A program made the position numbers and the translations under genes. Positions 5,734 through 63,175 of a stretch of DNA of 64,000 nt are shown here, in pieces (position 1 is the first letter of the stretch; each line of letters opens with the position of its first letter). Origin of the DNA: Rubripirellula sp. Lineage in GTDB: Bacteria; Planctomycetota; Planctomycetia; Pirellulales; Pirellulaceae. The notes under the pieces are model-generated. The model was not told the DNA's origin. It searched no databases and was given only the letters and a program-made list of their open reading frames with translations. The stretch covers positions 8,128,001 to 8,192,000 of the forward strand of contig OZ244207.1 of the NCBI GenBank assembly GCA_965216875.1. The letters run 5' to 3'.

Positions 5734-5751
5734 TGCACAATCGTTTGTGCA
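5734..5751. promoter_or_regulatory. Candidate LacI-family operator
   Basis: TGCACAATCGTTTGTGCA is an 18-bp palindrome with a central CG and one mismatched pair, 23 bp upstream of the LacI start. Confidence 0.7.
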
Positions 5752-30315: not shown

Positions 30316-33300
30316 CTATTTGCCAAGGTTAAGTCGAAAGAAGGTGAAGTCATCGGGTCCGATCATTCCATCGTTGTCGGCATCAAGGCCTTCGACATAT
30401 CTGGGATCCATCTCGTTGCTTCCAAAGGCGTGTCGGAAGGCGGCGAAGTCATACAAGTCGACCATTCCGTTTCCGTCCTGGTCCCCATATTTTCGATAGA
30501 AACCGTCGACTGCGCCGAATAGATGATCGTCGCCAGCCACACCATCTGCGTTGCCATCCAAAGCCAGCGAAAAGGAGGAGATCTTCGAGGCATCGATCCG
30601 CAATTCGTAGTCGCCATCGAGCAACCCGCCACCAAGATTCACGCTGCCGCCCGGGAGGAAGGTGATGTCCACGACGGATATTCCACTGGAGTTGTCGATT
30701 ACCGGGATCGGTACAACGCCATCGCTACTTCCGATTCGTCGGAACAGAAACGCGTCACTTCCGATGTCGACGATGCGATTGAATTCAACTCGCACGCTCT
30801 TGATTCCGGAGCGTTGTGGATCGCCATCATTGATGATCACTTGGTCAACAACCGGGGGGCCGGGGGAAATCGTGACAAGCACATCTTCGACTTCGCCACT
30901 GATCGCCATCCCGCCCACCGACAGACCACCTTCGTTGCTAATACGGACCCGGGCAAAGGTATTACCCGTCACCACTGCGTCGGTCACCGTGAAATTCAGT
31001 GTTTGCCATCCTGCGATAACGGGGACGTTATCTAGGATCTTTTCACCGATGTCATCCCAATCTCCGTCTCCATTGAAATCCAACCAAGCATCCACTTTCG
31101 CGTTGGCGGCATTTTGCAGATTGATGTTGACCGCGGCTAGCGAGTCGCTATCCGTTAGTGGGCCGAACATCACGCCATCTTCGTTGCCTACGTCCGCACC
31201 TTCAATATCGTCTTGCAGCGCATCGTTGGATGGCTGGCCATCGACTTCTGTATCACGTGAGTCGCCGAGTCGCGGTCCAATCGCACCGTGCACGGCACCG
31301 CCCTGGTCCGCAGTGACAGGATACGATGCGGGCGCGTCACCGTAGTCGGAGAATTGTTGCGCCAAGCGAACAAGGTCGCTTTGGTAAATGGTCTCATGAA
31401 TGACTTGAGTCCCGACGGTGTGGCCATCAGTGACGGCGATCTCCAAGGCAATGGCGGCGTTACTGGCGTCACCGTTGGCAGGAACGACGCCAGCGCGATA
31501 GACAACGGGGTCGATTGGCGGCGAAGGTTGAATGGTGCTGTGCTCGCTTTGATCGGCATCCATCCGCAGCTCTCTGCCGAAATCGAAATCACGGATCTCG
31601 ACCTGTTCCGCAGTGAACTCATCGAGTCCACTTTCGCCGAACAACCGATCGAGATCTTCGCTACCTGTGATCCGGTCGTCGCCGTCACCGCCACGCAATT
31701 CGTCGCGGTCGCTGGCAGCGTGTGAAAACCCAGCCAGCGGTGGTAGTATCTCGATCCCGAATGGACGCATTGGATCGTCGGGAGTCACTTTTATTAGGAA
31801 TGTCCCGGCCGGCCAACGTCGTAGGTCGATCACCCGACTTGGCGGCGATAGTCGTTGCCCCAAATCGTCGAACAACTCGGCTGCCCCGCCGACCACCGTA
31901 ATCTTATTGCCCTCCTGACCATCGCCCAAAGTTGTGAAGCGGTACCACGGCTGCGGCACGACTACGGCAGTGGGCGCGGCATGCCTGATGGTGGCATGAA
32001 ACGCGTTCGGCGTCGCGTCACGCAGTTGTTCATCTTGCGGCCCATCGAAATGGTAATAAGCCGCCAGTAGCGGTTCATCGCCGGCTGGTGGCTGCCCTAC
32101 AGAAGCGCGGATCTGATCCTCCGTGCGCGCCTCGTGCCAAATGCGCAGGTCGTCAAGTACGCCGCGGAGAGGGAAGAGACCTGAGCCCTGCTGTCCGACT
32201 ACGACCTCATCAATCTGGAAGGTTGGGTCGGCGTTGGAAGAGGGCTGCGAAGAATGCAGTTCCGTCGCGACGCCGTCAACGTACAGCATCGGTTCGTCAC
32301 TCTCGCCCCGCACGAGTGCATAGTGGTGCGGAAGACCGTCGATGACCGTGAGTGGAAGCGTCCAATCTCGTGACCCGAAACGAGGATCAAGAAGCCGCGC
32401 GTTGGGCCGATCACTGTCAGGCTGGACCACCAGCGAGAAGTTGTTGAGGGGGCCACTGGCGCCGGAGATGATCGTATGGATATCGGTGCCGGGTGCCAGC
32501 CCCAGTGAGAATTCGATCGTTAGCTCCTCACGGTTGTCCAGGACTTCGCTGGGGAGCATTAGCGAATCATCGAATCCTCCATCAGAATTGAATTGAAGGG
32601 CGAGTTTGCGATTGGATTCGCGAAACACGAACGGTTGCCCATTACCAATGTCAACCAGAAAATCGCCGCTGCCTGTCACGGTTCGATTGGTCAGGTCGGT
32701 CACCTGCGACTCTGGTGGCAGCGATATCCGCTGCGGTGCGCCATAGATGACGTAGGCGCGTCCCGCCGCTTGTTTGATGCGATCGATCCCTCCAGTGGCA
32801 TTCGGCGCGTTGACAATCAAGTCATCAATGCGATCGCCGTTAAGGTCGATCCCCGGCGCGCTCGATTCGGGACCGCTTGTCGTCAGGCCGGCAACGGGAA
32901 TGATCAGATCAGCCTCTGCCAAAGTCAAATGAACAACGGCGTCGGACGTCCCAACCGACCAGAACAAATGGGTTGCCATTGCGTCCCATGAAGTTAACGC
33001 CAGGTCGGTTTCCCCATCATCGTTGAAGTCGCCCGACGTCGCCGACAGCCGATCGGTCGTCGTCGAAACATGCAGGAGTGCGTTCAATTCGGTTGTAATT
33101 GTCGAGCCGCCCTGATAGACGTGCAGTCCCGTGTCATCCGTCCAGGCGATTTCCGCGTATCCGTCATTGTTGAGGTCGCCGACAACTTGGATCTGAAAAT
33201 CGTCGCTCGCATCGCGTAGGGGCGTCGGAATGATCGCGCCGACTGAATGTGTCGGCAACTCGATTCGTTCAACAAACGTTTCGTCCAAGCCGAAGTCGAT

Positions 33301-36300
33301 TGGATCGGAGACCACATTTCCGTTCGCATCTCTCATTGTGACAGTGAGTGCGTCGTCTCGATCCAAACAGCAATCGGTCCGCCCAAAGATTCTGATCTCT
33401 GACAAGATCGTCGGGTTGTCAAGCGTGATGGTTAGCGTCTCGCCAACGCCCGCTGCCCCGCTATGAAACACGGAACCGTTGACGTGATTGCCGTCGGTAT
33501 TACCGTCGATCGCGCGAGAGGCTGTCGCCAGCCCAAAGGGTCCGTCCCAAACCGAAGTTGCTGAGGCACTCCCGTTTAGGGCAACGTTTGAATTGGTCCC
33601 CAATTCAAACGCTTGCACCTCTGCAATGCTCAGGTGCTTATTCTGTCGCTGGCTGATCTCAATCGTCTTTACTTGTTCGCTTGTTGTTCCGGCGAAGACT
33701 GCAAAGGCATGCCGATCCAGGTCAACGCCGCCCGAGGCCAACTGGGGAATACGAAATCCCGTGACGGAGGCACCAGTAGGTTCATCCGCGACCTGCAACG
33801 TTACCGCTGGTCCCTTGAGTGTGGTTGTTGAGAATCGCAGTTTGCCACTACTTGAAGATGCAGCTAACTCACCGCCATGTATCGTCAAGAGTTGACCTTG
33901 CACGGCAGTCAGGAAATCGAAGCGTGATTCCGATTTCACCGCGATTTGAATGTTTTGGCTTACACCGTTTAACGTAATGTTAAACGCCACGGTATCTCCA
34001 GGAACTAGCTCCATACGCTCTGTGCCCGTGACTTGGGCAATCGCAGCCTCTCCGACACCAAATACGGCGCCGATTTCGTCGAGGCCGTCGCCATTGAGGT
34101 CACCAGGTACGGAAACTGACAAGCGAGACGACAACTCGCTTTCCAATGAAAGGGTTTTGCGTTGGATTGCCGAGATGTCAGTGCTATGATCCGCTCGCCG
34201 CGGCGTCGCAGTGTCGCTGAGCAGCGAGCCAGGAACGATGTATCCAAACGTTTCCGGCTCGTATATCCAGAATCCGGGCCATCCAGATGTTTGCGTCCGC
34301 GGAACCATCAGGATGTCTTGGTCCGTCAGCATGGGAAGGCCAGGGTCGACATGTTCGGCAACCAGAGTCGCTGTTGAACCGTCAAATCGCCATACCGAGA
34401 ACTCTGCGTTTTGCGAAGCGGCGGTGAAGTAAAGCTCGTCCCTAAATGCGACCAAGTTCGAAGGGTTGCCTACGAACGGGGCTTCCGAGAGCTGTTCAGA
34501 GACCGGATCAAAGCTCCACAGCGTTCGACCCTGTGTGCTGCTGACCGCAGTGAAGTACAGGACGCCATTGGCGACCGTTAGATCGCGCGGGGACGAACCG
34601 AAGTCTTCGACGGGAAAAATGTCCGCGACCAGCTGAGGGCTGGGATGGGATGGTGCGAGTCGATAGAGCTCTTTTCCAGTTTGATTGCCGTCGTCAAATC
34701 CGAAATAGACGGAACCGTCAATCGCTACTGCGTCATCGGGTACATCCGTGCTATTGGATATGAATTTCTCGACACCATTGACCCCAGCACTCGGAGTGTA
34801 GAGCCAAAACGCGGTGACGTGTTCGTTTTCAACAAGTTCCGTACCCGAGAGCAAAATGCCTTCACCAACATTCTGCATGCGAATCGCGTCCGGATTGTTG
34901 CCTAGATCGATCAGCGCCGTTGGAATGCCATCATGCTCAACATTCCCCGGGGTCAGCTGGTATTCGAGCAAGACATATGGATCGAGGCGGCCTCCATTTG
35001 CGGCGTTTCCTACAACCCGAAGGATGGTATACAGCGAATCTCCGTTCCCCGTAACGTCCAGCGGTGCACTATCAATTTGCCACGTACCGGAACCGTCCAA
35101 TAGCGAATTGAGCGAAGCCTGAAGTGCATTCGCCGTCAAGCCACGAAGCGGCCTTGCGTTCGCGCTCCCTGGGTCAACCGTCCACAACGGTTGTTCAAAC
35201 ATCACGCCATCCACTTTTGCACCAAAATACAGCGTGCCATCGAGTGACGTGAAGCCGACAAACTTGTCCACGCCATTGTTGTCATCAGCAGACTCGATCC
35301 TGATATTCGAATGGTCGCCCAACCTGTGAACGCTGCTGTCGCTAAAGTTGAAGATCTGTTCCCCCGCCTGAGCGTAGGCGCCGAGCGGATTGGTTAAGAC
35401 CGATTCTTGAAAACTCCCCAGCAGCGTTCGGTCATTCGAGGATGATGAAATCAGCAGGTCACTGTGTGGAAGACCCTCCGCACTGACATCACCGTAGTAA
35501 TTGAGCACGGATACCTGCGGGTCGGACGGGTTCAACTGCACGTCGTTCAGACGCAGCGTGCGATCGATGTTTATGCCCTCCAGGAATGATTGCCCCCATT
35601 GACGCGGCCAGTTGTCGACACCCCCGAATACGACCCGAATTTCCGTCAATGGAACTTCCACTCCATCTTGTGGCGTCGACGGCTTCATGAAGACCAAGTC
35701 AGCTAGACCATCGCCATTCAAGTCTCCGAGTCGATTCGCCGGTAGTCCAAGCGCCGCGTGCTCAATCACAATGTTCGCGTGCGCGAGAATATCATCCACC
35801 CGATCCAACGAAAGCGGACCGAACAGCAAGTAGCTGTGTGACTGTCCGCGGGCGATGAAATCGTTGTGGCCATCGCCATTGAAGTCGCCAATCGATCGCA
35901 TCGCGCCGAGTTGCTGATTCGTGTCTGACCCCTCGAGGGCAAAGACCTTCGATGCAAATGAATCATCCAGCTCAGCCTGCGTGATTGTCGACAGATTGAT
36001 CCCCTCGCGTGATGAATCCGTTGAAGGAGCAATAAATGGTGCCGCGAGGTCGAAGGTAAATGGCAGAAGAGCGGATCTGTCGCCAGGATTCGAGATCGGC
36101 GTCTTTCGGCGAACTTCGTCTTGATCGGCCCAGGCAATTGGATTGTGAAGCGTAAGCGTGTTGCTTCGATAATCCACCGCGCTGATGATTGCGGTATGTG
36201 CGGACACCTGGATGGTGTCGCCTGCGCGAAACGGTCTAGCGTTATCGACACCTATCTCTGCGCCACTACCATCACCCTTAGCGCGAACGGCGGTTTCATT

Positions 36301-51300: not shown

Positions 51301-54300
51301 CTCAAGATCGACATTCGTTTGGTCCAACACATGTTCGTCCAGCCCGCTAGCAGGCTTTGCATCGACAAACTTGTTCGCGTCTCCAAGTGTTTGGCCCGCA
51401 CTCAGTCGCAACCTCTCCGACGCGTATTCGAACCGCAGCTTGCCGGTAACGCCGTCGGTGTCATCAAAAACCACGGCGATCCCATCAACAACGTTGTAGT
51501 CACGCCCCAATTCGAGTCGTTGTCCGTCCAGGAAAACGACCACTGAATCTGGGTCGGCTAACGGTTCCTCGAGCGTGATCCGAACCTCACCTTGCACGTG
51601 TTTGACTTCAACTGCCGTTCGAGAAAACTCGAATGCCGGTGATTCGTTGCCGTCTTCATCCGAGATTCCGGAGGAGAATCCAGCGTCTCTTAGGGGCTGC
51701 AACAACGCTTTGTTCAAATCACGAACAAGATCGTCTAGGTCATGGTTGTCCTCGGTGTCCGCTTTTGAGAGTGCGACCTCAATGTTGCGTTCGTCATTGA
51801 GCGCTAGCGTTAGTGCCAAGTTGTCATTCAGCTTGCCGTCGGATGACGCCGGCATGCTGCCTGTCATACCGATGCGAGTCGAAACGCCGCGACCCGCATT
51901 CAAATCCGCCAGCAACGTGTCGCCGTTGAGCGTGAAGCCTGCGCCAAGTTCGCCGAGTTCGACCCCCAGTTTCAGTTCGATCCCCGCGGCGGCGCTGAAG
52001 GTGGCGTCAGCACCACCGACCACCGACAACGGCTCGTCGTCACCAATATCAAATGCCGTCCCAAAATCGAGCGAGATCTCTTTCGCAAACTCCTTGCCGA
52101 GCTTTAGATTCCAAAACAGCGTCTTCAGGTTGTCGTCATAAGAAACCTTTGCTTCAAAAGGGGAATCCGCGGACAGGACTTTGGCATGCTCGTTGACGAC
52201 ATCGATCAGACCCTGGAGGTTGTGCGCGCGGAACGCTGCCTTCGACTCGATTCCAGCAATGGGAATTCCAAGTGACTCGGCAGAGTTTTTGGTTTCTTGT
52301 CCGTCATCAAAACCGAGGGGCGCCGCCCCCGCAATCGTGACCGAATTGACACCCGGCGCGATCACTGAGAACTCCAACAGAGCCCCATTGGCAACGGCTA
52401 ACAACTGGGCGTCCAAGCTCGCATTCGCTAACGCCTGATTCACGTCATCAACCAGCGCATCGATCGTCAAATTGTCGGCAGTAGCGGATTCGTTTAGCCG
52501 CACCTCGACAGGAGCGTCGTCATTGATTTGAACATTCAACAATAGCGTCTGCGAAAGTTGAGTTGCGGGCGGAGACTGGGCTGTGAGCGTCAGTCCGGTA
52601 ACTGCCAAAGTCAACGCCTCGCCAGGCTGGGTCGTCGCAAGTACAAGATTTGCCGCGTTCGATGGACTGTTTTCAACAACGGCTGCAACCCGCCAATTCG
52701 GCGCCGAAAGTGAGATCCGCTGAGCTTCGCCCTGTTCGCTCGACCCCTCATCCAGCGTGATGATCGTCGCGTCAATGACGGGATTGTCGACCACAATTTG
52801 CAGCGTATCCATGTCGCCAAGACTCTCGTCGAACCTGACGATGAAAGGCCCGCTCGGTTCTCCTTCGACTTCGATCTTATCTTTACCTTCAGCATCTCCA
52901 ACCAACCTTATCAACGCAGATTCCACTGCTTCCTGGACTTGGGACGCGGTCGCGTTGACAGAGATTGCGTCAGTCGTCGCGTTGCTCTCGTTGCGCGTCA
53001 CCGTCAATCGGAAAGTCCCGGTCGCGCCGATGCCGGCGACCTCCAGCGAGGCATTCAAATCTTCTGCTAAGTCGCTCAGACTCTCGTTGGTCACATCTTG
53101 CGAGATGGAAACCCGTACCGGGTCGTCGTTCTCAAGGGTCACTACAAACGCCCCGTCCTCCTTCAATACGCCCTCGTGCACAATTTCGTTGCCTTGATTG
53201 TCGAGGGTGACCAGCTTAGGAACATCGATAGAAACTGATGCCGTTTCGTAAAGCGAGCGGGCCAGATCCGTCAGCGTGTCCGTGAAACGAATGACGTCAC
53301 TTGTCTTGACATTGACGTACGGGATCCCGCCCTCGGGGTCCAGTTCCGGCGCTACATCGTGGAGCGCAGTTCCCAAGTTCACAAAAAAGGTCGCGATCGT
53401 CTCCGGAGATAGGTCAGCGAAATCGGGAACAGCCCCAAGGTTCTTGGCCTGAATCTGCATCGCTGTTGTGTCGAATAGTGCCGTGTCCGGATTACTTGGC
53501 GGGTCTTCTTCCTGGACGACATCGACGATCGACAACGCGGCGTTCGCAAGCGTCAAAATCCCGCGCGCGTCATTGAGCGGCAGTTCAGCAGAGAAAGTTC
53601 CATCACCAGAGTCTGCTGCGTAATCAACCTTCAATAACGATTCATATCCTCCCGCATCAGCGAGTTGGCTGTACGTCAAGGTTGGTCCTTGAGCGTTAAC
53701 ATTGCCCAGGTCGCGGCGAATGATGGCAGTCGTTTCCAATTCGGCTCGACCACCTTTGACCTCCAACCCAAAGAATCCATAGTCGACTTCGAATCCGAGC
53801 GGACCAACGGCTGTCGCCTTATCGCCAAAGCCGAAGTTGGTTGCGATGACGTTTTCTGAGGGACGGTCCGCAATTTCGATCGAGACGATTCCGGTCTCCT
53901 CGGATCGCAATCGAAGTTTGCCATCAACGATCGATGCGTCGATTGCCTGGGGAGGCAAACCATTGGATGCCAGTGCGCCGCCCAGCGCAGATCGAATATC
54001 GTCGATGAGCAGACTCGAGGAACCACGCACGACTGGAACGTCGATGAGGGCCTCGCTGTTGTCGCCACCCCCTGGTTGATTCCACGTGACTTTCAAGCCC
54101 AACAACGTAGACTTGCCAACCTCGAATAGGTCTGGGTTAAGATCCTGTTCAGCAGTCAACGCAACCTGTTGAGATAGTCTTGCCGTCGTTTGCAATCCGA
54201 ATTGTTTGTCACGCAGTTCTGGATCCGCGTTTTCCGTATCGAGGTCGAATCGTATAAAGAAGTCGCTCTCGTCAACCGTTTCACCGGACAGATCAAGTCC

Positions 54301-54882
54301 GAAGGTGAATCGGAACTTCAAACCCAATTCAAGCGGGATCTTTCCTGCTCGCGCGTCGACTTCCAGTGGCAGCTCGTTGTGGTTCCGACTCAAGTCGATT
54401 CCGACGTCTTCGGTGCGGCTCGCTTCCACGAGCAGGCTGAATGTGATCTGCTCAGAATCAACCGATGTCGAAGGCGATTCGGTCTTGAATTGAACCTTTG
54501 CTGAACGATCCAGGCCGTCGAGCTGTGAGACGAGTTCATTGGGCGTCCGCTCCCCCGAATCCTTGTTTGCCTCGAGGAATTTGACCGTCGGCTTGGTCAG
54601 ATAAGTCGAGATGATGCCACCAACATCAAGTGACGCGCCGATCGACGTATCCAGAAATGGGAGGTTTTGACTGAGCGCACCAAAATCATCCATGCTTTCT
54701 GAGTAGGTCGCGAACTGCTGAAGCCCCTCGATAAGGGCATCTCGCTGGGGCGACGTGAACGGATTGTCAGCATTGAGCAGGTTTCGTTTCTCAAGCGACT
54801 CAATCATTATCCGGCGGCGGTTCCGCCTATTTTGTCGGCGTGCTTTGCGGCCAGTCACGCGAGAAGGGGCCTGTTTGGGCAT
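30316..54882 (-). CDS. Giant (~8,190 aa) extracellular mosaic protein: LEPR-XLL-type leader, beta-module repeats, RTX Ca-binding repeats, FG-GAP, ELWxxDGT-like propeller, F-type lectin, LamG, GEVED, dockerin-like end
   Basis: One uninterrupted 24.6-kb ORF. Contains RRRIMIESLEKRNLLNA, many GGxGxD nonapeptides, GDFNGDG/GDLNNDG, RTDCCLDR, LDDLRIW...YYHFD, DYGDAP...GEVED and GDQDGNGMVD...DADNDG. Start placed at MPKQAPSR. Confidence 0.9.
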   Translation of the reverse strand: MPKQAPSRVTGRKARRQNRRNRRRIMIESLEKRNLLNADNPFTSPQRDALIEGLQQFATYSESMDDFGALSQNLPFLDTSIGASLDVGGIISTYLTKPTVKFLEANKDSGERTPNELVSQLDGLDRSAKVQFKTESPSTSVDSEQITFSLLVEASRTEDVGIDLSRNHNELPLEVDARAGKIPLELGLKFRFTFGLDLSGETVDESDFFIRFDLDTENADPELRDKQFGLQTTARLSQQVALTAEQDLNPDLFEVGKSTLLGLKVTWNQPGGGDNSEALIDVPVVRGSSSLLIDDIRSALGGALASNGLPPQAIDASIVDGKLRLRSEETGIVSIEIADRPSENVIATNFGFGDKATAVGPLGFEVDYGFFGLEVKGGRAELETTAIIRRDLGNVNAQGPTLTYSQLADAGGYESLLKVDYAADSGDGTFSAELPLNDARGILTLANAALSIVDVVQEEDPPSNPDTALFDTTAMQIQAKNLGAVPDFADLSPETIATFFVNLGTALHDVAPELDPEGGIPYVNVKTSDVIRFTDTLTDLARSLYETASVSIDVPKLVTLDNQGNEIVHEGVLKEDGAFVVTLENDDPVRVSISQDVTNESLSDLAEDLNASLEVAGIGATGTFRLTVTRNESNATTDAISVNATASQVQEAVESALIRLVGDAEGKDKIEVEGEPSGPFIVRFDESLGDMDTLQIVVDNPVIDATIITLDEGSSEQGEAQRISLSAPNWRVAAVVENSPSNAANLVLATTQPGEALTLAVTGLTLTAQSPPATQLSQTLLLNVQINDDAPVEVRLNESATADNLTIDALVDDVNQALANASLDAQLLAVANGALLEFSVIAPGVNSVTIAGAAPLGFDDGQETKNSAESLGIPIAGIESKAAFRAHNLQGLIDVVNEHAKVLSADSPFEAKVSYDDNLKTLFWNLKLGKEFAKEISLDFGTAFDIGDDEPLSVVGGADATFSAAAGIELKLGVELGELGAGFTLNGDTLLADLNAGRGVSTRIGMTGSMPASSDGKLNDNLALTLALNDERNIEVALSKADTEDNHDLDDLVRDLNKALLQPLRDAGFSSGISDEDGNESPAFEFSRTAVEVKHVQGEVRITLEEPLADPDSVVVFLDGQRLELGRDYNVVDGIAVVFDDTDGVTGKLRFEYASERLRLSAGQTLGDANKFVDAKPASGLDEHVLDQTNVDLESIDVKVGETQLRIGEDYKVDVNEQNQVKITFHQSGGINGDLRIEYELRRFRLNSLSISNASVLGFGDAQQSDRDDLLVTLRDGTHHRISLDGSTTVRDVMDKFDAIDGLKATINVEDKSLRIHDSSDPTPSGVFKIEPVGDGIDVSPVAAALGILATLDGTFKLTYEPGVAQIPRTTAGLSVNATAMDLRAELDSIVGAGNIESVVGDVGGPFTVTFASGLGNVRPLSANFSNSRIKATTVTETEGGTGINGVVSEVQVITLSTDRIDGTPLHGETRLDRFFIDASPGASAISAKSKVESDDIDLAAAISIFEIGLVDGELDFEVAAAINLSDPGVGAQNDGKIRLRELNRSSLRRLVTPEFTFRGSGTLPIESSLLDVLPASTAQPVIAFSLTESDTGSRSKVEFDASSFKEFTENLGNFSLADMVTVLRNLVDLLQDSDLTGLNSDVPILNKTPNEILDFTDSILKVADDILAGPDLPELRRATDLLEDAIHRLQAPEDVKSTLRSTMNELRSVIGVDLTPGENQTFRLKFTDESGSESRELTSSAIGIMASAAEVTTALQSKLGTFKLPDGSDANVVTSVTGADGGPFTITFHPQKDDLLPLSGLSSKGVEVTVKTQTHGDKTKGTSEVQIVTLASTTMKHSFAIGFAGQTDVISQDATAEEVQAALEAAIGPGKIKSVVRENANELITFTVTFQSNLGDVETIKTSSPNRLQVTVTTTTEGIPPSENDDDDTGTPEVQTLTFEPLSPERSFVIEIPASKTVSIPFNASVSDVRIALDEAFGTFTTSDQTERTVVESVTGDRGGPFEIIFDSDAPAMEALSGTSETGLDVIVRKESDRVQTVRLSTEKILTGISGSIGRMISPLIEKTTTDEATIEDVSEPFEVTLSGTPIKTDSQRLRNVQEMSLSAVAADSAKVRIFVDGTELTSGFEYVPEYTLQFADKQTGQLEIIYQVEGNPHTETTSDAKKLSELKLEQRPDDDATFTVTLDGEPLKLTDYRFVATQKVSFTDPQTGLIQAQYPTLDSAVLKLKQNGEAIEPGDVNVTADSEGVKVTFNAEKTGNLQIEYAVESGLPTGYAGMVSVYSAFDRLITSGGNLGDKLGCLFKAALGFEDDDPTFDLKLSYVDADDERPGFQPAVLVGVQFEKVISEDLPFDFAPPDLGPFTVGAAGDVTVIAGADLSFGFGFNFSDLTPYVLATDRFPTELELQLGADSDLEITAGILGISASLQGPVRLGQAERDVFRGNGGTDFTLSTVVDSVVSVTVDGRAVPANTYKITEGDKISFGDAPADEAVIHVNYLAASPKQVDVFAADGLKKKYTLSRIPATFETEDSDFAEVFVNGSKQNKSDYRILVASEGEVEAADLDHCPEPACLELESFPNAGDEILVRYAVPSETEQTIFGDGQRVTFFLDEVPSEIVSVTRDDEQVPRSEYELNGKTITFNKAPVAAHPVIVTYEPFASATLTVGIDRNLTPADNNTIGQEPLNAGVAIPFNQLRQQVTQITDRLSSVRTERHTIDGNASNQEITLTGIPADADLVEVFVKRRKLGFLRNTKLEPTRFVVEIGETSEPTTIAFAEPIGQDEVSIKFATQVQEFELSRIPTDESSVAVEINGIAQEQGVAFDIIAPSDESEKPWMIQFIGPAFSQPAGDIKVTYPAIAKIEAVVDTSSGNITQTKRGARVSTIILDRVPEGDVVVRHDLDGDGTAEEIEHVVEIIPEGESDAGKHRVKITQTDTNNQVVKINGKIEIEYSSLVQEVELSHVPAALAGLSDDDTPTTTPADHGVTIRVDGIERNTDVELVRYDEEDGEASWKITFPESKPTGKVSVEYDGVAKLVDKFDLDINAIATAELAIPAIPALPPLTVSVDVAHPSTLRIEHPFTTENLKDLFKFDLRSLIDGLNAMLDKIGEHIESKEGIGQLPVIDKNARIGDRTFVGDIRRDFVDPLDRLLASGSAATEELQLKIQQLIFNNLGPGIPEIQVVSQLGPTIEVDQRVPVGTRLRLDDEDVLVVAARQIGEARFELTLENSLVASHRLNPRVGRKDPLVLLEAVNAGSTEILVSQNVSVGTALRLADTETVRVIGVDDEGDQFRLSLSLPIQNAFTASTSVDERLQLYSSVEAGAKALQVNQSVTIPDGGELSLILDEGNPTEESIIVTGVDEQDGIFVLTLLAPLAKDHFFAPTISDPEGTSALELLYDIQQRPDSLEVDQEVSVGVELILDEGGESEETIRVTKVDQTPSGYKLSLAGGLSNDHAAPTVRIADAIRTQLDGAAVPAEQTIVVGPYADSTNVFNTGAIISINQDPEFFEVMGVEDLGNGLFELRLSEPLARGYAEGSTVTDGFATTLLFDPATPVVQTIDVEGDIPSGATIVIGTGEKLESLTVVSADGSTLSLERPLLHQHDDETSVIVRNGHDSSGNAGLNILSLDPLESLDVDGKQSLSFLDVPVNLDLNTLSLDALLHIDKTYSLAADFDVGLDALVFDIETSGGVEVDVSVEAFLGFGVSVEDGFYFQLLHDDPAVDDDGREIQLEVDARLAPGTELTVDLFGLKLNATNHQDKAGPYPIDTSIDSDAGGSGLAALLQEDDAFGVNTVDSTKEIDDGTGNGFLITLNKRLGDVPPLEVTFIRTDANNVVTETTTTATIVQEGNNDGFDQSQWTSEVQRVIFPPAEENVTYTYSLTLSKENTGVRAAAFVDIADLEADTESPGKLTFSEFRADGKSFRDFLSFGIEAQANVDLDLTANVNPSFPELTTRFVVGWGFCNTFDENDPTCELDLNNDGDTGDEGETLQSGEFSKPSVAFNDLTLDIGQFLTKVAKPVLDGVDKYIGPMKPLLEFLNQEVPGLSAIAKLAGEAPITNLQLGILASAGSDPAKLQKALRQSRRAQKVLDLLIKITEFSADIEDLGDSNLKIEFGDYPIGQDQDLSDANAKVTATSEDRVDFDAVLAQLGSKPDDDDATKEKKSKTRSALQKMKDGALSGGLGIKLPILSDPQSIIKLLTGQAVDADLVQWDIPRLELEVPFEQKFGPVVPAVPLFVTFGINLQTFLDLSIGFDTSGIASDNFADGFYFGDRQDVDEGDDVDEFGFGFEAFIGAELDLLIASAGVEGGIRGDIGFNWNDPDGDGKVYLDELERTFNLPTHPATSQGACVFDISGGLDAFLRLVYETPFFDGEVPIVEEEIFSFSHTCGAGLAHVTDGEDGFADGTLVLHAGQFAGQRQAGGSEDIAEDFLLEEIADGVIRVTAFEFEEVHSGVKQILFHGGEGDDKILLASDTTVPVSIPATLIGGPGADTLGGGIGNDTYVFGDDWGIDTIVERVDGGHDTLNFASATQAVNASVTNAGVTAQDAFGDLVLAGNVEGFVGGISSDTLHVSKESGDGTNQWSVDGLNRGRVDDFGFEFSGVENLLGSNQVDVFVLSNDAGVSSSIDGLGGFDTIHYAYASDNPVTVDRDNKAGTNVSRYRNIEQFIGGSSGDDLLIGESADAVWYLTGDDQGHVDDPATFRFEGFENLTGGNEADHFMLEPGSAISGLADGGSGSDTLDLTGLRESLTFVLDADNAGQVSSTRLLSTFTNMESLSGGAKDDAFRFENGVQLTGTLDGHGGGRDVVDYAPWTTGVTVNLQDGIRSNGHGIVNVEQLLGGLGNDVLTGNDSNNLLVGRHGNDELYGGAGNDILWGGMQLLSVDELDLDDRTNFVDPPNFAEAVHSQFGYFPNTPASFGGRSSDGTIGDGQDKLDGGNDDDFLFGGGDDDELNGGSGVDYVDGGVGNDVINGGAGDDLVRGGANDDEIHGGDGIDQVYGDAGRDMLYGDAGNAADGSLLGQRLWGGDGIDFLHAFAPSNDVADEQAEIGDELHGGSGGDWLYGNLRAEILVGNGGNDFLAGDWLAGPGYARNTRANLDGGADDLRGGSGEDQLFGGGGDDTLRGGADSDWLEGQNHNDQLIGGAGIDIMVLDVDPSYEPAANESFDGHGDELDEGPDDNATDIMLIEGTTDHDLIRLLKSDQSVDLLRAEYSSNAEGASGTEGTNGPTRAIEARWRDATGPLVEQFRVSGLLGNDTLEFVRGDKALDLSELVDRSNDFIGVLDGGPGNDTLIGSAGRDRLDGGRGSDTLYGLQGDDRLWGDSGRGLGSAGDLDVLFAGGGNDDLIGGQGRNELYAWSFHPQGTFATSLPHLADDPPTQFGVFFDPTTGQWSDHSDGTLELEDTGLNRMLGNDEDDLLFGGTRLDFLYGRGGNDTLFRADGTDLESVDGGLAGDEWKQYARETDKVWYVGGTNVDDVITVDFVTEPGLLTNHHLVTRLTNNDGNFSFAAQLQLDFDAIDRDGNPIWNSADIAFAIGLTGLESVAATGQLSEDAIFSLRIDDSETEVTIPFAEAADNTNVDDLLTDLVAALTAAGISDQVEARIDNGAISLLRIRDSNGNGGASTLEVTSANSVASDELHLEVGQTGVPRPVPVPELSRLLPVEDDFLAILIDGLDGNDQITVGPTVQKTVWIDAGAGDDRVEITGGNSILIDQAEYGSRNDSPAQAFVLPTLDPNESRLLSGLTLDSPDDVDWFQFEISTPLDNLITSSISPDDGLIAEVFELDGVTNVALAALDVGRPFLLRVQSDSIPTIYDITFNLTDGVAPKEVDLAQRVDLNRRDVILGGAGNDILSGGMGEDWIFGGPDNDVLTGGRDRQAPDLLFGEGGDDTFQLITDALPLLKNPDETFVPSFSDRFDGGFEDEIQGDRVLFLGGDFDRNGIPVPDFAALRYNRLLHRYEFTNLVWDINGQGFISADDAVPATLVASADLGDPNLGDDAMFLLSIDGGDEVPVTVRHKGGDGGTFDNRDIRDLVADMNAALDNAGLSGTVSAGFDGQRLTFQTIAAGASHTLTFSSPNEAAEQLGFGNGIDPQPLTVTGTDNVFEQQYLLYTTIDVERTVIDTRAGDDIFRGDSEYKFPGQSSEWGIDPGDFQQRALIAALDIRGGDGRDVLFGGALADTIDGGPDADLINGGQEDDLVYGGAGGDTLAGNETAVRAKGDGSGAEIGVDNARPFRAGDTIQVSAHTAIISAVDYRSNTLTLHNPIAWADQDEVRRKTPISNPGDRSALLPFTFDLAAPFIAPSTDSSREGINLSTITQAELDDSFASKVFALEGSDTNQQLGAMRSIGDFNGDGHNDFIARGQSHSYLLFGPLSLDRVDDILAHANIVIEHAALGLPANRLGDLNGDGLADLVFMKPSTPQDGVEVPLTEIRVVFGGVDNWPRQWGQSFLEGINIDRTLRLNDVQLNPSDPQVSVLNYYGDVSAEGLPHSDLLISSSSNDRTLLGSFQESVLTNPLGAYAQAGEQIFNFSDSSVHRLGDHSNIRIESADDNNGVDKFVGFTSLDGTLYFGAKVDGVMFEQPLWTVDPGSANARPLRGLTANALQASLNSLLDGSGTWQIDSAPLDVTGNGDSLYTILRVVGNAANGGRLDPYVLLEYQLTPGNVEHDGIPTALIDLGNNPDAIRMQNVGEGILLSGTELVENEHVTAFWLYTPSAGVNGVEKFISNSTDVPDDAVAIDGSVYFGFDDGNQTGKELYRLAPSHPSPQLVADIFPVEDFGSSPRDLTVANGVLYFTAVSSTQGRTLWSFDPVSEQLSEAPFVGNPSNLVAFRDELYFTAASQNAEFSVWRFDGSTATLVAEHVDPGLPMLTDQDILMVPRTQTSGWPGFWIYEPETFGYIVPGSLLSDTATPRRADHSTDISAIQRKTLSLESELSSRLSVSVPGDLNGDGLDEIGAVFGVGEAAIAQVTGTERMELVPGDTVAFNITLNGVSQNIQIAVKSESRFDFLTAVQGQLLTIHGGELAASSSSGKLRFSTTTLKGPAVTLQVADEPTGASVTGFRIPQLASGGVDLDRHAFAVFAGTTSEQVKTIEISQRQNKHLSIAEVQAFELGTNSNVALNGSASATSVWDGPFGLATASRAIDGNTDGNHVNGSVFHSGAAGVGETLTITLDNPTILSEIRIFGRTDCCLDRDDALTVTMRDANGNVVSDPIDFGLDETFVERIELPTHSVGAIIPTPLRDASDDFQIQVVGDLNNDGYAEIAWTDDTGLHVYQGGSTITTELNALLHVSTTTDRLSATSGDFNDDGETDLALTSWDAMATHLFWSVGTSDAVVHLTLAEADLIIPVAGLTTSGPESSAPGIDLNGDRIDDLIVNAPNATGGIDRIKQAAGRAYVIYGAPQRISLPPESQVTDLTNRTVTGSGDFLVDIGNGQPFVFRESNRKLALQFNSDGGFDDSLMLPSEVLDNREELTIEFSLGLAPGTDIHTIISGASGPLNNFSLVVQPDSDRPNARLLDPRFGSRDWTLPLTVIDGLPHHYALVRGESDEPMLYVDGVATELHSSQPSSNADPTFQIDEVVVGQQGSGLFPLRGVLDDLRIWHEARTEDQIRASVGQPPAGDEPLLAAYYHFDGPQDEQLRDATPNAFHATIRHAAPTAVVVPQPWYRFTTLGDGQEGNKITVVGGAAELFDDLGQRLSPPSRVIDLRRWPAGTFLIKVTPDDPMRPFGIEILPPLAGFSHAASDRDELRGGDGDDRITGSEDLDRLFGESGLDEFTAEQVEIRDFDFGRELRMDADQSEHSTIQPSPPIDPVVYRAGVVPANGDASNAAIALEIAVTDGHTVGTQVIHETIYQSDLVRLAQQFSDYGDAPASYPVTADQGGAVHGAIGPRLGDSRDTEVDGQPSNDALQDDIEGADVGNEDGVMFGPLTDSDSLAAVNINLQNAANAKVDAWLDFNGDGDWDDIGEKILDNVPVIAGWQTLNFTVTDAVVTGNTFARVRISNEGGLSVGGMAISGEVEDVLVTISPGPPVVDQVIINDGDPQRSGIKSVRVEFNRIVDIGSDAFLFRRIGSSDGVVPIPVIDNSSGISVVDITFLPGGSVNLGGGLLDGDYELRIDASKISSFSLALDGNADGVAGDDHLFGAVDGFYRKYGDQDGNGMVDLYDFAAFRHAFGSNEMDPRYVEGLDADNDGMIGPDDFTFFRLNLGK

Positions 54883-54948
54883 ATCAAAACGCTGCAATGA
54901 GAGAGGTGCATTACGAGTGTTTCGCGGCGAAACGCCCGTCACGAAGTT

Positions 54949-54985
54949 ACGCACGAAGCCGACAACAACAGGGAGGCGAATTTTT
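54949..54985 (-). promoter_or_regulatory. Candidate ECF promoter of the giant gene
   Basis: Minus strand AAAAATTCG-CCTCCC-N14-TCGTGCGT, 66 nt upstream of the ATG, with the same boxes and spacing as 55784-55811. Confidence 0.65.
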
Positions 54986-55102
54986 CAGAAAAGACGCCGC
55001 GAGACTGTCGTCTGGCTGTTTCTCAATCGACGAGCTAGGAAATGCCGAAACCAGCAATCCTCAGCTATGATTGTGCGGGGGACTCCCTTTGGCTTTGATT
55101 CG

Positions 55103-55699
55103 ATGCACGACGACAACAACTCCGATACGACTCAAATCTTGTTAGAGCTCTGTAATCGTCAACCCGATGCCGCCGAACGGTTGATGCCAGTGGTCTACGA
55201 CGAACTCAAGGGGTTGGCGGTTGCCGCGATGCGGCGCGAACGCCCCGATCACACACTTCAGCCAACCGCTCTGGTCAATGAGGCTTTTCTGAGACTGATT
55301 GATCAGGAAAGAGTCAAATGGCGCGGCCGAGCGCACTTCTGTGCCATCGCAGCCACCATGATGCGACGCATCCTGGTCAACCACGCTCGAAATCGCGTGG
55401 CCATGAAACGCGGTAACGGAATCAGCCGAATTCCGCTACACGATGAACTCGTTGCTGTCGACTCCGCCAGCGAAGTCGATGTGCTCGATTTTGATCAACT
55501 GCTAACTGAATTGGCCGAACTGAATCCGCGGCATGCCAATGTGATTGAGCTCCGGTTCTTTACCGGGCTAAGCATCGCCGAGACTGCAGAAGTGTTGGAC
55601 GTTTCCGAGTGGACGATCAAGAACGACTGGCGAGTGGCCCGAGTATGGTTGTTGATGAAACTGAACTCCGAGTCAAAAGCCGAGAATTTGCATCGATGA
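55103..55699 (+). CDS. ECF sigma factor, kinase-associated TIGR02999 / ECF43-like
   Basis: TQILL, LMPVVYDEL, HTLQPTALVNEAFLRL, AHFCAIAATMMRRILV, ELRFFTGLS and DWRVARVWL. Confidence 0.9.
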   Translation: MHDDNNSDTTQILLELCNRQPDAAERLMPVVYDELKGLAVAAMRRERPDHTLQPTALVNEAFLRLIDQERVKWRGRAHFCAIAATMMRRILVNHARNRVAMKRGNGISRIPLHDELVAVDSASEVDVLDFDQLLTELAELNPRHANVIELRFFTGLSIAETAEVLDVSEWTIKNDWRVARVWLLMKLNSESKAENLHR

Positions 55700-55775
55700 T
55701 CGCCAGATTCTCTCAATCTAGATGGGTTAGGAATCGGATTCGCTTGACACTTTCGCGACAATCAACGCGAGACAC

Positions 55776-55811
55776 AAATTCTACCTCCCACTTTCGAACT
55801 CACTCGTGCGT
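55776..55811 (+). promoter_or_regulatory. Candidate ECF promoter of the kinase gene
   Basis: AAATTCTA-CCTCCC-N14-TCGTGCGT, 96 nt upstream of the kinase ATG. Confidence 0.65.
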
Positions 55812-55907
55812 TATGTGCGGTGGATAGCGTGCAACGTTCAGTCATGTCTCACAATTGCCAGCTTGCATTGACTGACGGCCGGGTAAACAAGCGAACGGGG
55901 GTGACGG

Positions 55908-58900
55908 ATGTCAACTGCTGATGCCGAATTCTATCGACGCGCTTCTGAGATCTTTTTGAAGGCATGCGACCTTGATCCGGATCAGCGTCAAGCATTGATG
56001 AGGCACGAATGTGCCGACGACCAGATGCTGGAGTATGTGCAGTCAATGATCGAGCAAGACGCACAATTGAGCAGCATCCCGACCGAGACAGTCCCGAGTA
56101 TCAAACAGGGCGACATCGCTACGGGGTGGGAAGGCGAGAATGACACGCTTGGCATCGAGCCGGCGGAGGCGTTTCACGCGAGTGCTACGTCAAGAAACGG
56201 AAGTTCGCTGGCCGACTACGACAACCTGAAGGAAATCGCCCATGGTGGGATGGGCGTCATTTACCGAGCCCATCAACGCAGCTTGAACCGGGACGTGGCG
56301 ATCAAGATGATCCGCGTCCGTTCTCATCTTTCGGCGTCGGATCTGGAGCGATTTCAGCTCGAAGCCGAGGCAACCGCCAAGCTCAATCACCCAAATATCG
56401 TTCCCATCTACGAAATCGGTGGACATGAAGGGCAGCCGTTCTTTTCAATGAAGTTGATTGAGGGTGGCAACCTTTCGAATTGGCTGAAGCAAGAACACGA
56501 TCTTCCATCCAAGGTATTGCTGCTGATCAAGACCGCCTTGGCGGTTCACTATGCCCATCAAAACGGTGTGCTTCATCGTGACATCAAGCCAGCAAACATT
56601 CTGATCGATTCCTCGGGTGAACCTCACATCAGTGACTTTGGATTAGCGAAACAACTGGATGGAGACGTCGAGCTTACCATCACCGGCCAAATCATGGGGA
56701 CGCCGGGGTATCTCTCCCCCGAACAAGCTCGCGGACAAAACTCGACGATTACCACCGCGTCGGACATCTATAGCCTTGGCGCAGTGCTCTACGAGATTTT
56801 GATCGGCCAACCGCCGTTCAAGTCAGATTCAATGATCGAAACGATCCGCAAGATCGTTGACGAAGCACCGCAGCGACCGTCGCAATTGAACCCAAGCGTC
56901 GACCTTGACCTGGAAACCATTTGCCTACGTTGCCTGGAGAAATCACCGACGGACCGGTACGCGTCGGCGGAAGCACTCGCATCCGAGTTGCAGCGATGGA
57001 TGCGAAATGAGCCGATCCTCTCGCGACCGATTACCGGCAGCGAACGCCTACTCAAATGGGCTCGCCGAAAACCCGCGCTCGCAACGCTCTCATCGGCAAT
57101 GTTACTTACCTTCGTTGTTGCTGGGTTTGCCGTCATCTGGAAATGGCGCGACGCCGAGTATCAGCGTGGGGAAGTTGTCATCCAACGGCAGCAAACCCGC
57201 AAGTACCTGTACATCGCGCACATGAACATCGTCCAGCAGGCCTGGGAAAACGGGATGGTGCACGAGGTACGACGTCTGCTTGATCGACACCTTCCGGTCG
57301 AAGATGAAGAAGACATCCGCACATTCGAATGGCATTTTTACGATCGGCTAAGCCGAGATGTGCTGAACCGAGCCAGCATGGACTATGGCGACATTGTCAC
57401 ATTCGTGGAAGCGTCGCCAAACGGTGATGAAATCGCAGCAACGGGCAACGACCACAGAATTCAGATATGGGACAAACAGTCCGCCAAACGCAAGTACACA
57501 CTGACGCCAGGACTTGGCCGAATCGAACGCCTGCACTATTCGCCCGATGGGAAAACCCTTGTCGGAGTTGGCCACCGGAGTTTTCGAGTTTGGAGAAAGT
57601 CCGGAGGCAAATTAAACGACGCGTTTACCGGTGCGACAGAGGATCGGTTTCTTACCAAGCTATCTCACGACGGCCGGTGGATTGCCGCCCCGATCAGGGG
57701 AAACAGCATTCAAATTTGGAACACTGCGGATCCCTCCGACACGCACATCGTTCCAGTCGGCGGCGGTGGCGTGATCGAGCTGCAATTCTTGCACGACAAC
57801 ATCCATTTCATTTCAGCGAGCCAGGACGGAGCGATCAAAATCTGGAACGTTGAATCCGCGACTGCCGTTGCCGAAATTCACGTCAGCGAGTTGCCGTCGA
57901 GTAAAGGAAATTTGAGGTCGCTTGCGATTTCAAGCAATGACAAGAGCATTGCGATTGCCGCTGATAACGCGATCAGCCTTTACCAACTCTCTCCTGATTT
58001 TGAGTGGACTTTGACCCGCGAGATTGGCCGACTCGCGAATACGATTGAGTCTCTCATACCTGTCGGCGATGGCGGGGTTTTCGCCGTGGTCGCCGGCGAA
58101 GCCACCACGCTTTGGGAATTCGAAACGGGAAAGCAATGCGGGACAATAGGCGATCCGACCCAATTTTCAGCTTGGTTCGATTCCTCGGCCAAGAGCAATC
58201 AATTTGCCACAATTGGCAGTGGCAATGCGGCGCATATCTGGGATCCCACGACGGGGAATTCGGTTGGAAAGATTCAAGGTCACAGTAACGCCGTCTACGC
58301 GATGGACTTTGTTGATGATGGATCCATCGTCACCGGAAGCCGGGACCATACGATCCGAGTCTCCAACGCGAACAGCGGAGAAATTGCTTCGACCTTCCGC
58401 GGCCATGAAGGCTGGATTTGGTCCGTCAACTATTCGATGGACGGGCAATTGATCGCATCGGGCAGCGTCGATGGAAAGGTAAAGGTTTGGGACCTGAGTT
58501 CTGGCACCGAATCATGGGAGGTAGAAGCAAGCTCTCGAAGCATTCAGTTCGTCATCTTTTCGCCTGACAATCGCACGCTCGCGGCAGCGGGGCGAGACAA
58601 GATCATTCGTTTGATTGACATCGAATCGCGAAACGTGATCGGCTCACTTGAGGATCACCATGCAGATGTCAACTCGCTTAGTTTTTCTTCCGACGGTCGC
58701 TACCTTGCCTCGGGAAGCAATGATCGATCCGTGATCGTCTGGGACGTCGCCAACCAGTCGGTCAAACATCGACTTGACGATTGTGGCGGAGACGTTTGGG
58801 CCGTCGCTTTCGCGCCGGACGATCAAAGCATCGCTTTCGGCGGTCGCAATAAGCAGATTCAAATTTGGGATCTTTCGAAAGTCGAATCGGTGCCTGATGC

Positions 58901-59276
58901 CGTGTCTTCGATTGCACAGTTGAATACTGACGTTACCAGTCTGATGTTTTCTCCGAATGGAAACACGCTATCGGCGACAATCGGCGGTGGTGCAATCCTA
59001 TTGTTCGACTATGGATCGCGCGAACTCATGAATGAGTTGACTGGCCACTCCAGTGATGCGATGTCAACCTCCTTCTCCCCTGATAGCCGCACATTGGTTT
59101 CGGGTTGTAGCGACGGAAAGATTCGTTTCTGGAACCTCGCGACGTTGCAACGCACGATTGCAATCCAAGGACATCCGCAACACATTCATTGCGTGCGATT
59201 CTCGCCTGATGGTTCGTCAGTCGCCTCGGCAAGCTGGGATGGGACGGTCCGCCTCTGGTCGGCGGCGGATCGATAA
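55908..59276 (+). CDS. Hanks-type Ser/Thr protein kinase with one predicted TM helix and C-terminal WD40 repeats
   Basis: GGMGVIY, VAIK, HRDIKPANIL, DFG and GTPGYLSPEQ; hydrophobic MLLTFVVAGFAVIW; many GH...WD/WN repeats. Confidence 0.95.
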   Translation: MSTADAEFYRRASEIFLKACDLDPDQRQALMRHECADDQMLEYVQSMIEQDAQLSSIPTETVPSIKQGDIATGWEGENDTLGIEPAEAFHASATSRNGSSLADYDNLKEIAHGGMGVIYRAHQRSLNRDVAIKMIRVRSHLSASDLERFQLEAEATAKLNHPNIVPIYEIGGHEGQPFFSMKLIEGGNLSNWLKQEHDLPSKVLLLIKTALAVHYAHQNGVLHRDIKPANILIDSSGEPHISDFGLAKQLDGDVELTITGQIMGTPGYLSPEQARGQNSTITTASDIYSLGAVLYEILIGQPPFKSDSMIETIRKIVDEAPQRPSQLNPSVDLDLETICLRCLEKSPTDRYASAEALASELQRWMRNEPILSRPITGSERLLKWARRKPALATLSSAMLLTFVVAGFAVIWKWRDAEYQRGEVVIQRQQTRKYLYIAHMNIVQQAWENGMVHEVRRLLDRHLPVEDEEDIRTFEWHFYDRLSRDVLNRASMDYGDIVTFVEASPNGDEIAATGNDHRIQIWDKQSAKRKYTLTPGLGRIERLHYSPDGKTLVGVGHRSFRVWRKSGGKLNDAFTGATEDRFLTKLSHDGRWIAAPIRGNSIQIWNTADPSDTHIVPVGGGGVIELQFLHDNIHFISASQDGAIKIWNVESATAVAEIHVSELPSSKGNLRSLAISSNDKSIAIAADNAISLYQLSPDFEWTLTREIGRLANTIESLIPVGDGGVFAVVAGEATTLWEFETGKQCGTIGDPTQFSAWFDSSAKSNQFATIGSGNAAHIWDPTTGNSVGKIQGHSNAVYAMDFVDDGSIVTGSRDHTIRVSNANSGEIASTFRGHEGWIWSVNYSMDGQLIASGSVDGKVKVWDLSSGTESWEVEASSRSIQFVIFSPDNRTLAAAGRDKIIRLIDIESRNVIGSLEDHHADVNSLSFSSDGRYLASGSNDRSVIVWDVANQSVKHRLDDCGGDVWAVAFAPDDQSIAFGGRNKQIQIWDLSKVESVPDAVSSIAQLNTDVTSLMFSPNGNTLSATIGGGAILLFDYGSRELMNELTGHSSDAMSTSFSPDSRTLVSGCSDGKIRFWNLATLQRTIAIQGHPQHIHCVRFSPDGSSVASASWDGTVRLWSAADR

Positions 59277-59303: not shown

Positions 59304-60383
59304 TTACGACCCAAGTGAAGTCCGCAACGCATCGCTGCCGCTGATGATGTCGATGGGCGGAAGTTTGGTTTCGTATTCGTAGGGTGGGTCGATCCAACGG
59401 AAGTCGTTGGGGTACAGGCGTGCGACCTGCGAGATGATTTCTACCGACGTTGCGTAGGGGCGAAACACGGTCGCATCGGTGACTTGCAGGGACAATCCTT
59501 CGCAAACTTGGCCGCTCCATTTGTCGAAGGTTGGTCGGAAGCGGATGGGCAGAAAGGTGACACCCTCAAGTTCAGTCGCCTGCAATGCGGCAAGCAAACG
59601 ATCCGAATCAATGAACGGTGCACCGACGATTTGAAACGGAATGGTCGTGCCTCGCCCCTCGGACAGATTGGTTCCTTCAAGAAGGACCTGCCCCGGATAG
59701 ACAAGGGTCGATTCAAAGGTCGGCAGGTTCGGAGAAGGAGGGATCCAAGCTCGACCCAATTCAGTCCAAAGGTCTTTGCGATTCCAGCCCGTCATCTCTG
59801 TGGTGGAGAGGTTGGCTCCGACTCCGAGTTCTTCGTTGAAGTAGGTCGCGAGCTCACCGATCGTTAGAGCATGTCGCATGGGAATCGAAGCGCCACCGAC
59901 AAAACTCTCGAATCCCGGGCGCAGTGGCGGTCCCTCGACAATCTCGCCGCCGATCGGGTTGGGACGATCAAGCACATGGACAGAGACTTCATGCGCTGCG
60001 CACGCCTTCATGCATTCCAGCAACGTCCAGACAAAGGTGTAGACGCGGGTGCCGACGTCTTGAAGATCAACCACGAGGCAATCGATGTCTCGTAGCATTC
60101 GCTCAGTGGGTCGCCGCGTTTCACTGTAAAGACTGTAGATTGGGACGCCAAGTTGCTCGTGGTGATCGTGGTCCGACTCAATCATGTTCGCTTGGGCGTC
60201 ACCCCAAAGGCCATGCTGTGGCGAAAAGAGCGCCGTCAGTTGGCGCGGCAACGCATCGTTGATCAAGTCGCATGCAAACCGAAGCTGGCGGTCGACCGAC
60301 GCGCGGTTCATCAGCACACCGATCCTCGCATCTCGCAGCTCGGGTGGCGGTTCGGCAACGAAGTTTTCCAGGCCAAGACGCAT
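59304..60383 (-). CDS. namZ: NamZ/DUF1343 family exo-beta-N-acetylmuramidase, no signal peptide
   Basis: LFSPQHG, YSLY, DLQDVGTRVYTF, LDRPNP, PSPNLPT and LEGTNLSEGRGT. Confidence 0.82.
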   Translation of the reverse strand: MRLGLENFVAEPPPELRDARIGVLMNRASVDRQLRFACDLINDALPRQLTALFSPQHGLWGDAQANMIESDHDHHEQLGVPIYSLYSETRRPTERMLRDIDCLVVDLQDVGTRVYTFVWTLLECMKACAAHEVSVHVLDRPNPIGGEIVEGPPLRPGFESFVGGASIPMRHALTIGELATYFNEELGVGANLSTTEMTGWNRKDLWTELGRAWIPPSPNLPTFESTLVYPGQVLLEGTNLSEGRGTTIPFQIVGAPFIDSDRLLAALQATELEGVTFLPIRFRPTFDKWSGQVCEGLSLQVTDATVFRPYATSVEIISQVARLYPNDFRWIDPPYEYETKLPPIDIISGSDALRTSLGS

Positions 60384-60424
60384 TTTGCGGCACACTTTGA
60401 TTGGTTAAGCAAGAACGGCTGGGA

Positions 60425-63126: not shown

Positions 63127-63175
63127 ATCAAGAAGTCCTTCAACGAGGGGATAGAATGAAGATTGTGAACAAGCG

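Follow-up and report, generated by a model that had tools for sequence, protein, structure and literature searches.

A giant secreted-type protein gene divergent from an ECF43-like sigma factor and a WD40 receptor kinase in Rubripirellula sp.: a candidate phosphorylation-switched circuit

For two Proteobacteria it has been shown that phosphorylation activates a sigma factor (PMC13147305, PMC8103513; these and the other sources are cited from the parts available). In one of them, the kinase PknS phosphorylates T51 of EcfK, a sigma factor of extracytoplasmic function (ECF) type, which has QATE where the ECF43 consensus has QTTA (PMC13147305). Here we describe a locus of Rubripirellula sp. in which the gene of a giant secreted-type protein is divergent from an ECF43-like sigma gene and the gene of a receptor kinase with WD40 repeats. 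The window analysed is a stretch of 64,000 nt (contig OZ244207.1, positions 8,128,001 to 8,192,000) of a genome that forms a single contig of 8.26 Mb, and positions are those of the window unless a genome is named. A kinase-switched sigma factor is in itself already known; the pairing of this giant-protein family with such switches is unusually frequent.

The locus and the proposed circuit

The block consists of three genes, the giant gene on the minus strand and the sigma and kinase genes on the plus strand. A preliminary description made from the sequence alone had given the same orientation, with DUF418 and namZ genes on either side, and all of these genes are present. The main features are the following.

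30316..54882, minus strand: gene of a giant secreted-type protein, 8,188 amino acids (aa) from ATG 54882
33334..33597, minus strand: lectin-like domain of the giant protein, aa 7096-7183, with a match to PDB 1k12
37333..41532, minus strand: principal cluster of RTX nonapeptide repeats (PF00353, E 1e-50), at aa about 4450-5850
54949..54983, minus strand: AAATTC-G-CCTCCC-N14-TCGTGCGT, a candidate ECF promoter for the giant gene, with its end 67 nt ahead of the ATG
55103..55699, plus strand: ECF43-like sigma gene, 198 aa (TIGR02999, PF07638)
55776..55811, plus strand: second copy of the box, AAATTC-TA-CCTCCC-N14-TCGTGCGT, inside the 208-bp gap between sigma and kinase
55908..59276, plus strand: Hanks-type receptor kinase gene, 1,122 aa (Pkinase domain, motifs, transmembrane (TM) helix, WD40)
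55914..56072, plus strand: three-helix N-terminal head of the kinase, aa 3-55 (alignment of partner kinases, head profile, model with pLDDT 85)

The genes, their motifs, the box and the family-level adjacency are directly seen; from them we infer, for every regulatory step, a circuit private to this one locus, which we favour with moderate confidence. By its predicted topology the kinase would span the inner membrane and hold its WD40 propellers on the periplasmic side, where a cue would activate it. The kinase would then phosphorylate T55 of the sigma and, as in EcfP and EcfK, restore a negative charge for RNA polymerase binding. The active sigma would use the giant-gene box to transcribe that gene (24.6 kb), whose surface or secreted product would be Ca-binding and lectin-bearing, and the second box to yield more kinase. 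Judged by the sequences, the kinase and the sigma are very probably a cognate pair, the giant gene is probably a direct target of the sigma, and feedback on the kinase appears somewhat favoured.

Two gene starts differ from the first calls. The giant open reading frame (ORF) was first called as 30316-54954 on the minus strand, with 8,212 aa from a GTG at 54954 inside the box. ATG 54882 is the likely start, because it opens the basic leader and the GTG falls in the candidate promoter, and the size of about 8,200 aa given earlier becomes 8,188 rather than 8,212 aa. Likewise, ATG 55103 (198 aa) is the likely start of the sigma gene, because a 314-aa call runs into the giant gene. The gaps of the block (220 and 208 bp) contain no ORF of at least 100 aa, and a separate anti-sigma gene was not found there, as had been claimed.

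The sigma factor matches TIGR02999 at 199 bits (cut-off 126) and PF07638 at E 1e-51. At aa 53-56 it carries QPTA in place of the acidic DxxD motif, with a predicted phosphosite at T55 (codon 55265-55267) that would correspond to EcfK T51; the preliminary description had likened it to ECF43-type sigmas, and this holds. In a set of 148 distinct homologues drawn from other lineages, the motif reads QATA in 77, QPTA in 33 and QTTA in 20 (130 together), and a kinase lies within 900 bp of the sigma in 102. The following traits of ECF43 in an expanded sense are present: a Sigma70_ECF/TIGR02999 domain, an uncharged QxTA with Thr, a one-TM Hanks kinase at +1 and no anti-sigma gene. Compared by group description, the locus departs from the narrow ECF43 group (Casas-Pastor 2021: Proteobacteria only, TPR sensor, GTC/CAG promoter) in its WD40 sensor and its CCC..GCGT box. 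The assignment of the sigma as ECF43-like is thus supported at the level of sequence.

The kinase domain (aa 104-359) has intact motifs and is preceded by the helical head. A single TM helix (aa 389-413), itself preceded by RRK, leads to C-terminal WD40 repeats, as one or more propellers, which run to the end of the protein. In Planctomycetota kinase-TM-WD40 proteins the WD40 part is predicted to be periplasmic (PMC11032199), and the same probably applies here, so that the cue would be periplasmic and the outside would not be sensed directly. Of the earlier proposal that WD40 senses an external cue, the WD40 domain on a receptor kinase therefore stands, and the external cue becomes a probably periplasmic one.

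A profile of the three-helix head, built without the window, matches 5 of the 94 kinases of the genome, including all 3 that lie beside ECF43-like (TIGR02999-like) sigmas, which marks this kinase as of the ECF43-partner type. The head has no Pfam match. The predicted complex of kinase residues 1-380 with the sigma scored 0.62 against 0.49 for the control, a difference from which nothing is concluded. We regard the head as a candidate module for docking or restraining the sigma. This raises the alternative that the kinase doubles as an anti-sigma factor, its cytoplasmic head holding the sigma at the membrane until phosphorylation or proteolysis frees it, and "no anti-sigma" would therefore be true at the gene level only. 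Conservation of the head in 25 aligned partner kinases, set beside its rarity in the genome, speaks for such a role, as does the conserved N-terminal extension of PknS, to which the available part of PMC13147305 assigns no role. However, a fold search with the head gave no clear anti-sigma or other match (best Z 6.8, unrelated; the anti-sigma PupR at Z 4.8, rank 46), and loss of pknS in Xanthomonas abolishes the output and does not switch it on (PMC13147305). We consider this alternative quite unlikely. Two other kinases with the head stand apart from sigma genes or are orphans: one with a weak match (E 1.5e-4), no adjacent sigma and a divergent gene for a 1,386-aa LEPR-leader protein (G000:C1:828979-836847, the present genome), and a second orphan at genome positions 4796487-4798331 beside polysaccharide-type genes.

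The giant protein begins with a basic leader of LEPR/LExRxLL type (ESLEKRNLL). The LEPR-XLL leader announced earlier is thus recognisable in kind, but its PF07595 match (E 3.6e-5, 23.7 bits) stays below the Pfam cut-off of 25.5, and no NCBIfam match to the leader was found. Ca-binding RTX repeats (PF00353) occupy 13 stretches, accompanied by FG-GAP and ELWxxDGT-like repeats, an F5/8-type lectin-like domain, LamG, GEVED and a weak dockerin-like match at the C-terminal end. About 4,400 aa have no Pfam match over the cut-off; an atlas search with aa 3891-4400 gave unnamed clusters only, and no convincing TM anchor was seen. The lectin-like domain matches PDB 1k12 ("LECTIN") at E 8.5e-5, with PF22633/PF00754 below their cut-offs. 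This entry we take to be eel fucolectin, and the H..RxDx4R motif of the domain resembles that of F-type fucose-binding lectins. Because of this domain make-up we call the protein a putative adhesin, at the surface or secreted. No type I secretion genes lie adjacent to the giant gene, and of 31 weak HlyD matches in the genome none reaches the TIGR01843 cut-off of 208.65 (best 69.5).

The shared upstream box as a candidate promoter

The bipartite box CCTCCC-N14-TCGTGCGT occupies 54949-54976 on the minus strand and 55784-55811 on the plus strand, with AAATTC ahead of each copy. Across the whole genome its form CCTCCC-N14-TCGTGCG occurs exactly twice, once ahead of the giant gene and once ahead of the kinase gene; the motif reported earlier upstream of both genes is real. 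No sigma-70 consensus promoter was found in 54850-55950.

An independent view came from a two-block model. Its training set comprised 77 dereplicated regions, each downstream of a homologous sigma that has no coupled kinase (of the 148; mostly Acidobacteria, window excluded). The model converged on GCCCnTTTT-N13-GCnTTnnT, with 28 sites at p>0.6, and upstream of both the giant gene and the kinase its top-scoring site coincides with the shared box, at the modal spacer of 13 nt. Among 2,435 upstream regions the kinase ranks 30, the giant gene 197 and the sigma gene 1,142. These results support an ECF43-promoter geometry for the box, as far as sequence models can tell.

The sigma gene itself is without a box. 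This, together with two further TIGR02999-like sigmas among the genome's roughly 108 ECF-like ORFs, would suit a box that is read by another factor (one of those two or another ECF-like ORF), the locus then belonging to a wider regulon. The genome scan speaks against it: strict and relaxed box patterns match this locus only, which argues for a private sigma, and we hold a different reader to be very unlikely.

Other promoter-like elements were seen near related sigmas. In acidobacterial ECF43-like loci (L181, L187, L209, L211, L229, L264, L277, L289 and others) a conserved GCCCnTTTT-N13-GCnTT lies 3' of the sigma gene, with GTGAAGGCGG further downstream. In common planctomycete ECF43-like loci (L010, L011, L013, L015-L018, L020, L022, L120) the sigma-kinase gap contains TGgG-N16-CGCAtTG, which suggests that kinase autoregulation may be widespread in that clade. 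The sigma-4 helix of the window sigma, TIKNDW, is closer to the acidobacterial TVKRDW than to the common planctomycete type, and this would explain a box that differs from the common planctomycete ECF43 promoter.

Linkage across genomes and the genomic setting

Homologues of the giant gene were collected from a first sample (7 matches besides the window) and then from 65 of 401 genomes, fetched where the contig was long enough, and 43 5' ends were located. Left out were matches on short contigs as well as G022, G204, G129, G408 and G019:C138, in which the 5' flank is absent or not long enough. A pair was counted when the first upstream gene was an ECF sigma or a kinase and both lay within 9 kb; two tandem giants and one giant with an ECF43-like sigma and no kinase counted as misses, and in 4 of the 43, whose frames are broken, the 5' assignment is inferred. 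So defined, an ECF-kinase pair stands at the 5' end of 20 of the 43 giant genes, spread over 18 of the 35 genomes and 12 of the 23 genera. The background is 75 of 5,182 genes (1.4%) by a near-identical criterion (7 kb) in this genome; it comes from one genome, and kin among the giants are not independent. By the same 7-kb criterion, the pair is found at 6 of this genome's 35 LEPR-leader proteins, at 3 of its 18 ORFs of at least 2,500 aa and at both of its ORFs above 8,000 aa. The second of these, the genome's other 8.5-kaa protein (G000:C1:6626347-6655862), is a weak homologue divergent from an ECF-kinase pair of a different sigma type. Homologous open frames of 15,000-18,500 aa occur in G204:C35, G129:C61, G329:C1 and G340:C6.

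The partners of the giants vary. ECF43-like sigmas make up only 3 of the 20 giant-adjacent pairs, all of 12 giant-neighbouring sigmas checked against Pfam match sigma-70 families, and few giant-adjacent kinases show WD motifs. The linkage in relatives that had been anticipated is thus present as a pairing of the giant family with ECF-kinase pairs, and absent as a conserved trio: the orthologous trio was not found in 400 sampled family genomes (best sigma identity 55-58%), nor in 160 GTDB and metagenome loci by word-based scans that returned mostly Acidobacteria, and none of the kinases at the loci of the 148 distinct sigmas has at least 3 WD motifs. One locus, from the first sample, comes close: in G022 a sigma of 57% identity, in the same supported subclade (99/97) as the window sigma, is flanked in tandem order by a giant gene (>8,360 aa) on one side and a WD40 kinase on the other, and the two giants have only one region of 26% identity in common.

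Several observations weigh against control of the giant gene by this sigma, and they bear on the alternative that the sigma-kinase pair is real and the giant gene a mere neighbour, pairs and giants both gathering in variable regions and the box being due to chance or serving the kinase only. As many as 60 of 6,000 random upstream pairs (about 1%) score as high as the box, whose pattern was defined after being seen; this null scored the bipartite match without AAATTC. The giant-gene box is merely in the top 8% under the two-block model, and a single-block 30-nt model, which locked onto the -10 and downstream sequence and was replaced by the two-block model, placed the giant gene at 236 and the kinase at 2,041 of 2,435. 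The common planctomycete promoter described above, modelled from 13 gaps, gives the box copies scores of 3.9 and 2.9, which is no fit, and neither copy matches GTC/CAG, the prediction for ECF43 of Proteobacteria (PMC7826278 supplement). Among 15 other loci, G277 alone (score 18) has a box common to giant gene and kinase, with 8 of 240 cross-locus comparisons at 13 or more, and the similarity of upstream motifs barely tracks sigma similarity (3 of 22 against 9 of 176 pairs). No giant neighbour was seen within the 1.5-kb flanks of the 27 loci whose sigmas are closest (about 50-58% identity); these sigmas are mostly paired tightly with kinases of multi-pass-looking C-termini, beside unrelated genes. 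Finally, no pair stands at 23 of the 43 giant homologues, and this genome alone has 43 adjacent ECF-kinase pairings, with about 41 ECFs beside kinases. Mere neighbourhood nevertheless sits poorly with the pairs that stand immediately 5' of 20 of the 43 giants against a background of 1.4%, and with two box copies that both fit an independently derived promoter geometry; we judge it unlikely. The earlier claim that the sigma drives giant gene and kinase is supported by the fit of the box to an independently trained model and qualified by the rarity of a duplicated box at other loci.

Some of the other loci deserve mention for their upstream elements. In L139 (G277:C163), whose sigma is non-ECF43, the box TGAGGGG-N14-GGTGAGTTAAT is duplicated ahead of giant gene and kinase, with positions upstream of 18005 and past the ECF stop at 17192. 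In L119 (G344) and L123 (G293), from two genera with similar sigmas, TTGGCACAC-N13-GGGCAT stands before both giants.

Beyond the single locus, planctomycetes may gate each costly giant surface protein by its own swappable kinase-sigma pair, with unrelated ECF groups, WD40 or other sensors and a box of its own. We put this forward tentatively, as a possibility below the one-locus circuit in confidence. Interchangeable sigma-kinase pairs before one giant-protein family are the part worth pursuing: if the reading is true, sigma phosphorylation in the phylum would have giant adhesin-like genes as one of its major outputs, and promoter motifs would follow for sigma groups without any. As a compact test case, the present locus combines a predicted phosphosite with a candidate promoter in two copies and one huge predicted target, and it bears on when planctomycetes pay for 25-kb surface proteins, whose possible roles include attachment, glycan binding and defence.

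The block is flanked by the following genes.

29027-30217: DUF418 gene
59304-60395 and 60425-61636: two namZ genes

At the 20th-36th percentile of the genome, the block's GC content at third codon positions (GC3) is unremarkable, and neither GC3 nor a synteny check in two congeners gave evidence of recent transfer of the block. DUF418 was not found in these two congeners with the window query, and in G002 namZ and thiC lie apart. The DUF418 gene itself has a GC3 of 0.76, at the top of the genome range; it is possibly acquired, or its reading frame may be misassigned. The two namZ genes are tandem paralogues with 42% identity; with a sodium:solute symporter gene, all within 59304-63390, they likely form a peptidoglycan-sugar recycling operon.

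Comparison with described systems

The target pairing had been thought undescribed. In the literature covered, which is partial for planctomycetes, no giant secreted protein is named as the target of an ECF43 sigma, and no known target appears for the about 41 kinase-adjacent ECFs of this genome. Elements of the arrangement do have precedents in the PMC7826278 supplement (Casas-Pastor 2021): ECF217s1 has a conserved Planc_extracel and dockerin neighbour, and ECF62 kinases carry WD40 repeats, like the window kinase. Unlike the planctomycete kinase-linked ECF59, ECF61, ECF62 and ECF217, the window sigma is TIGR02999/ECF43-like; in the available part of that supplement, the ECF61, ECF62 and ECF217 entries give no conserved promoter and do not claim the secreted neighbour as a target. 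The kinase shares the plan of Planctomycetota kinase-TM-WD40 receptors, with a cytoplasmic kinase, a single TM and a periplasmic WD40 array, and the available part of the paper describing them (PMC11032199) does not link these receptors to sigmas or targets.

Large RTX adhesins such as LapA, SiiE and MpIBP combine giant size, Ca-binding nonapeptide repeats and distal sugar-binding domains, as the giant protein does here. In contrast to them, the present protein has central RTX repeats, a LEPR-type leader and a dockerin-like end, and its locus lacks adjacent type I secretion genes in a genome where no HlyD match reaches the TIGR01843 cut-off.

The closest described switches are EcfK-PknS of Xanthomonas citri and EcfP-PknT of Vibrio parahaemolyticus. 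In the accounts available, they share with the window the Sigma70_ECF domain, an uncharged QxTA with conserved Thr in place of DxxD, a one-TM kinase at +1, an N-terminal extension and the lack of an anti-sigma gene. However, the sensor is WD40 here and TPR there, the 208-bp sigma-kinase gap with its internal box stands against their tight coupling, and the box is unlike the GTC/CAG predicted for proteobacterial ECF43. The predicted output differs as well: a giant RTX/lectin protein in Rubripirellula, and the type VI secretion system or polymyxin resistance in the two Proteobacteria.

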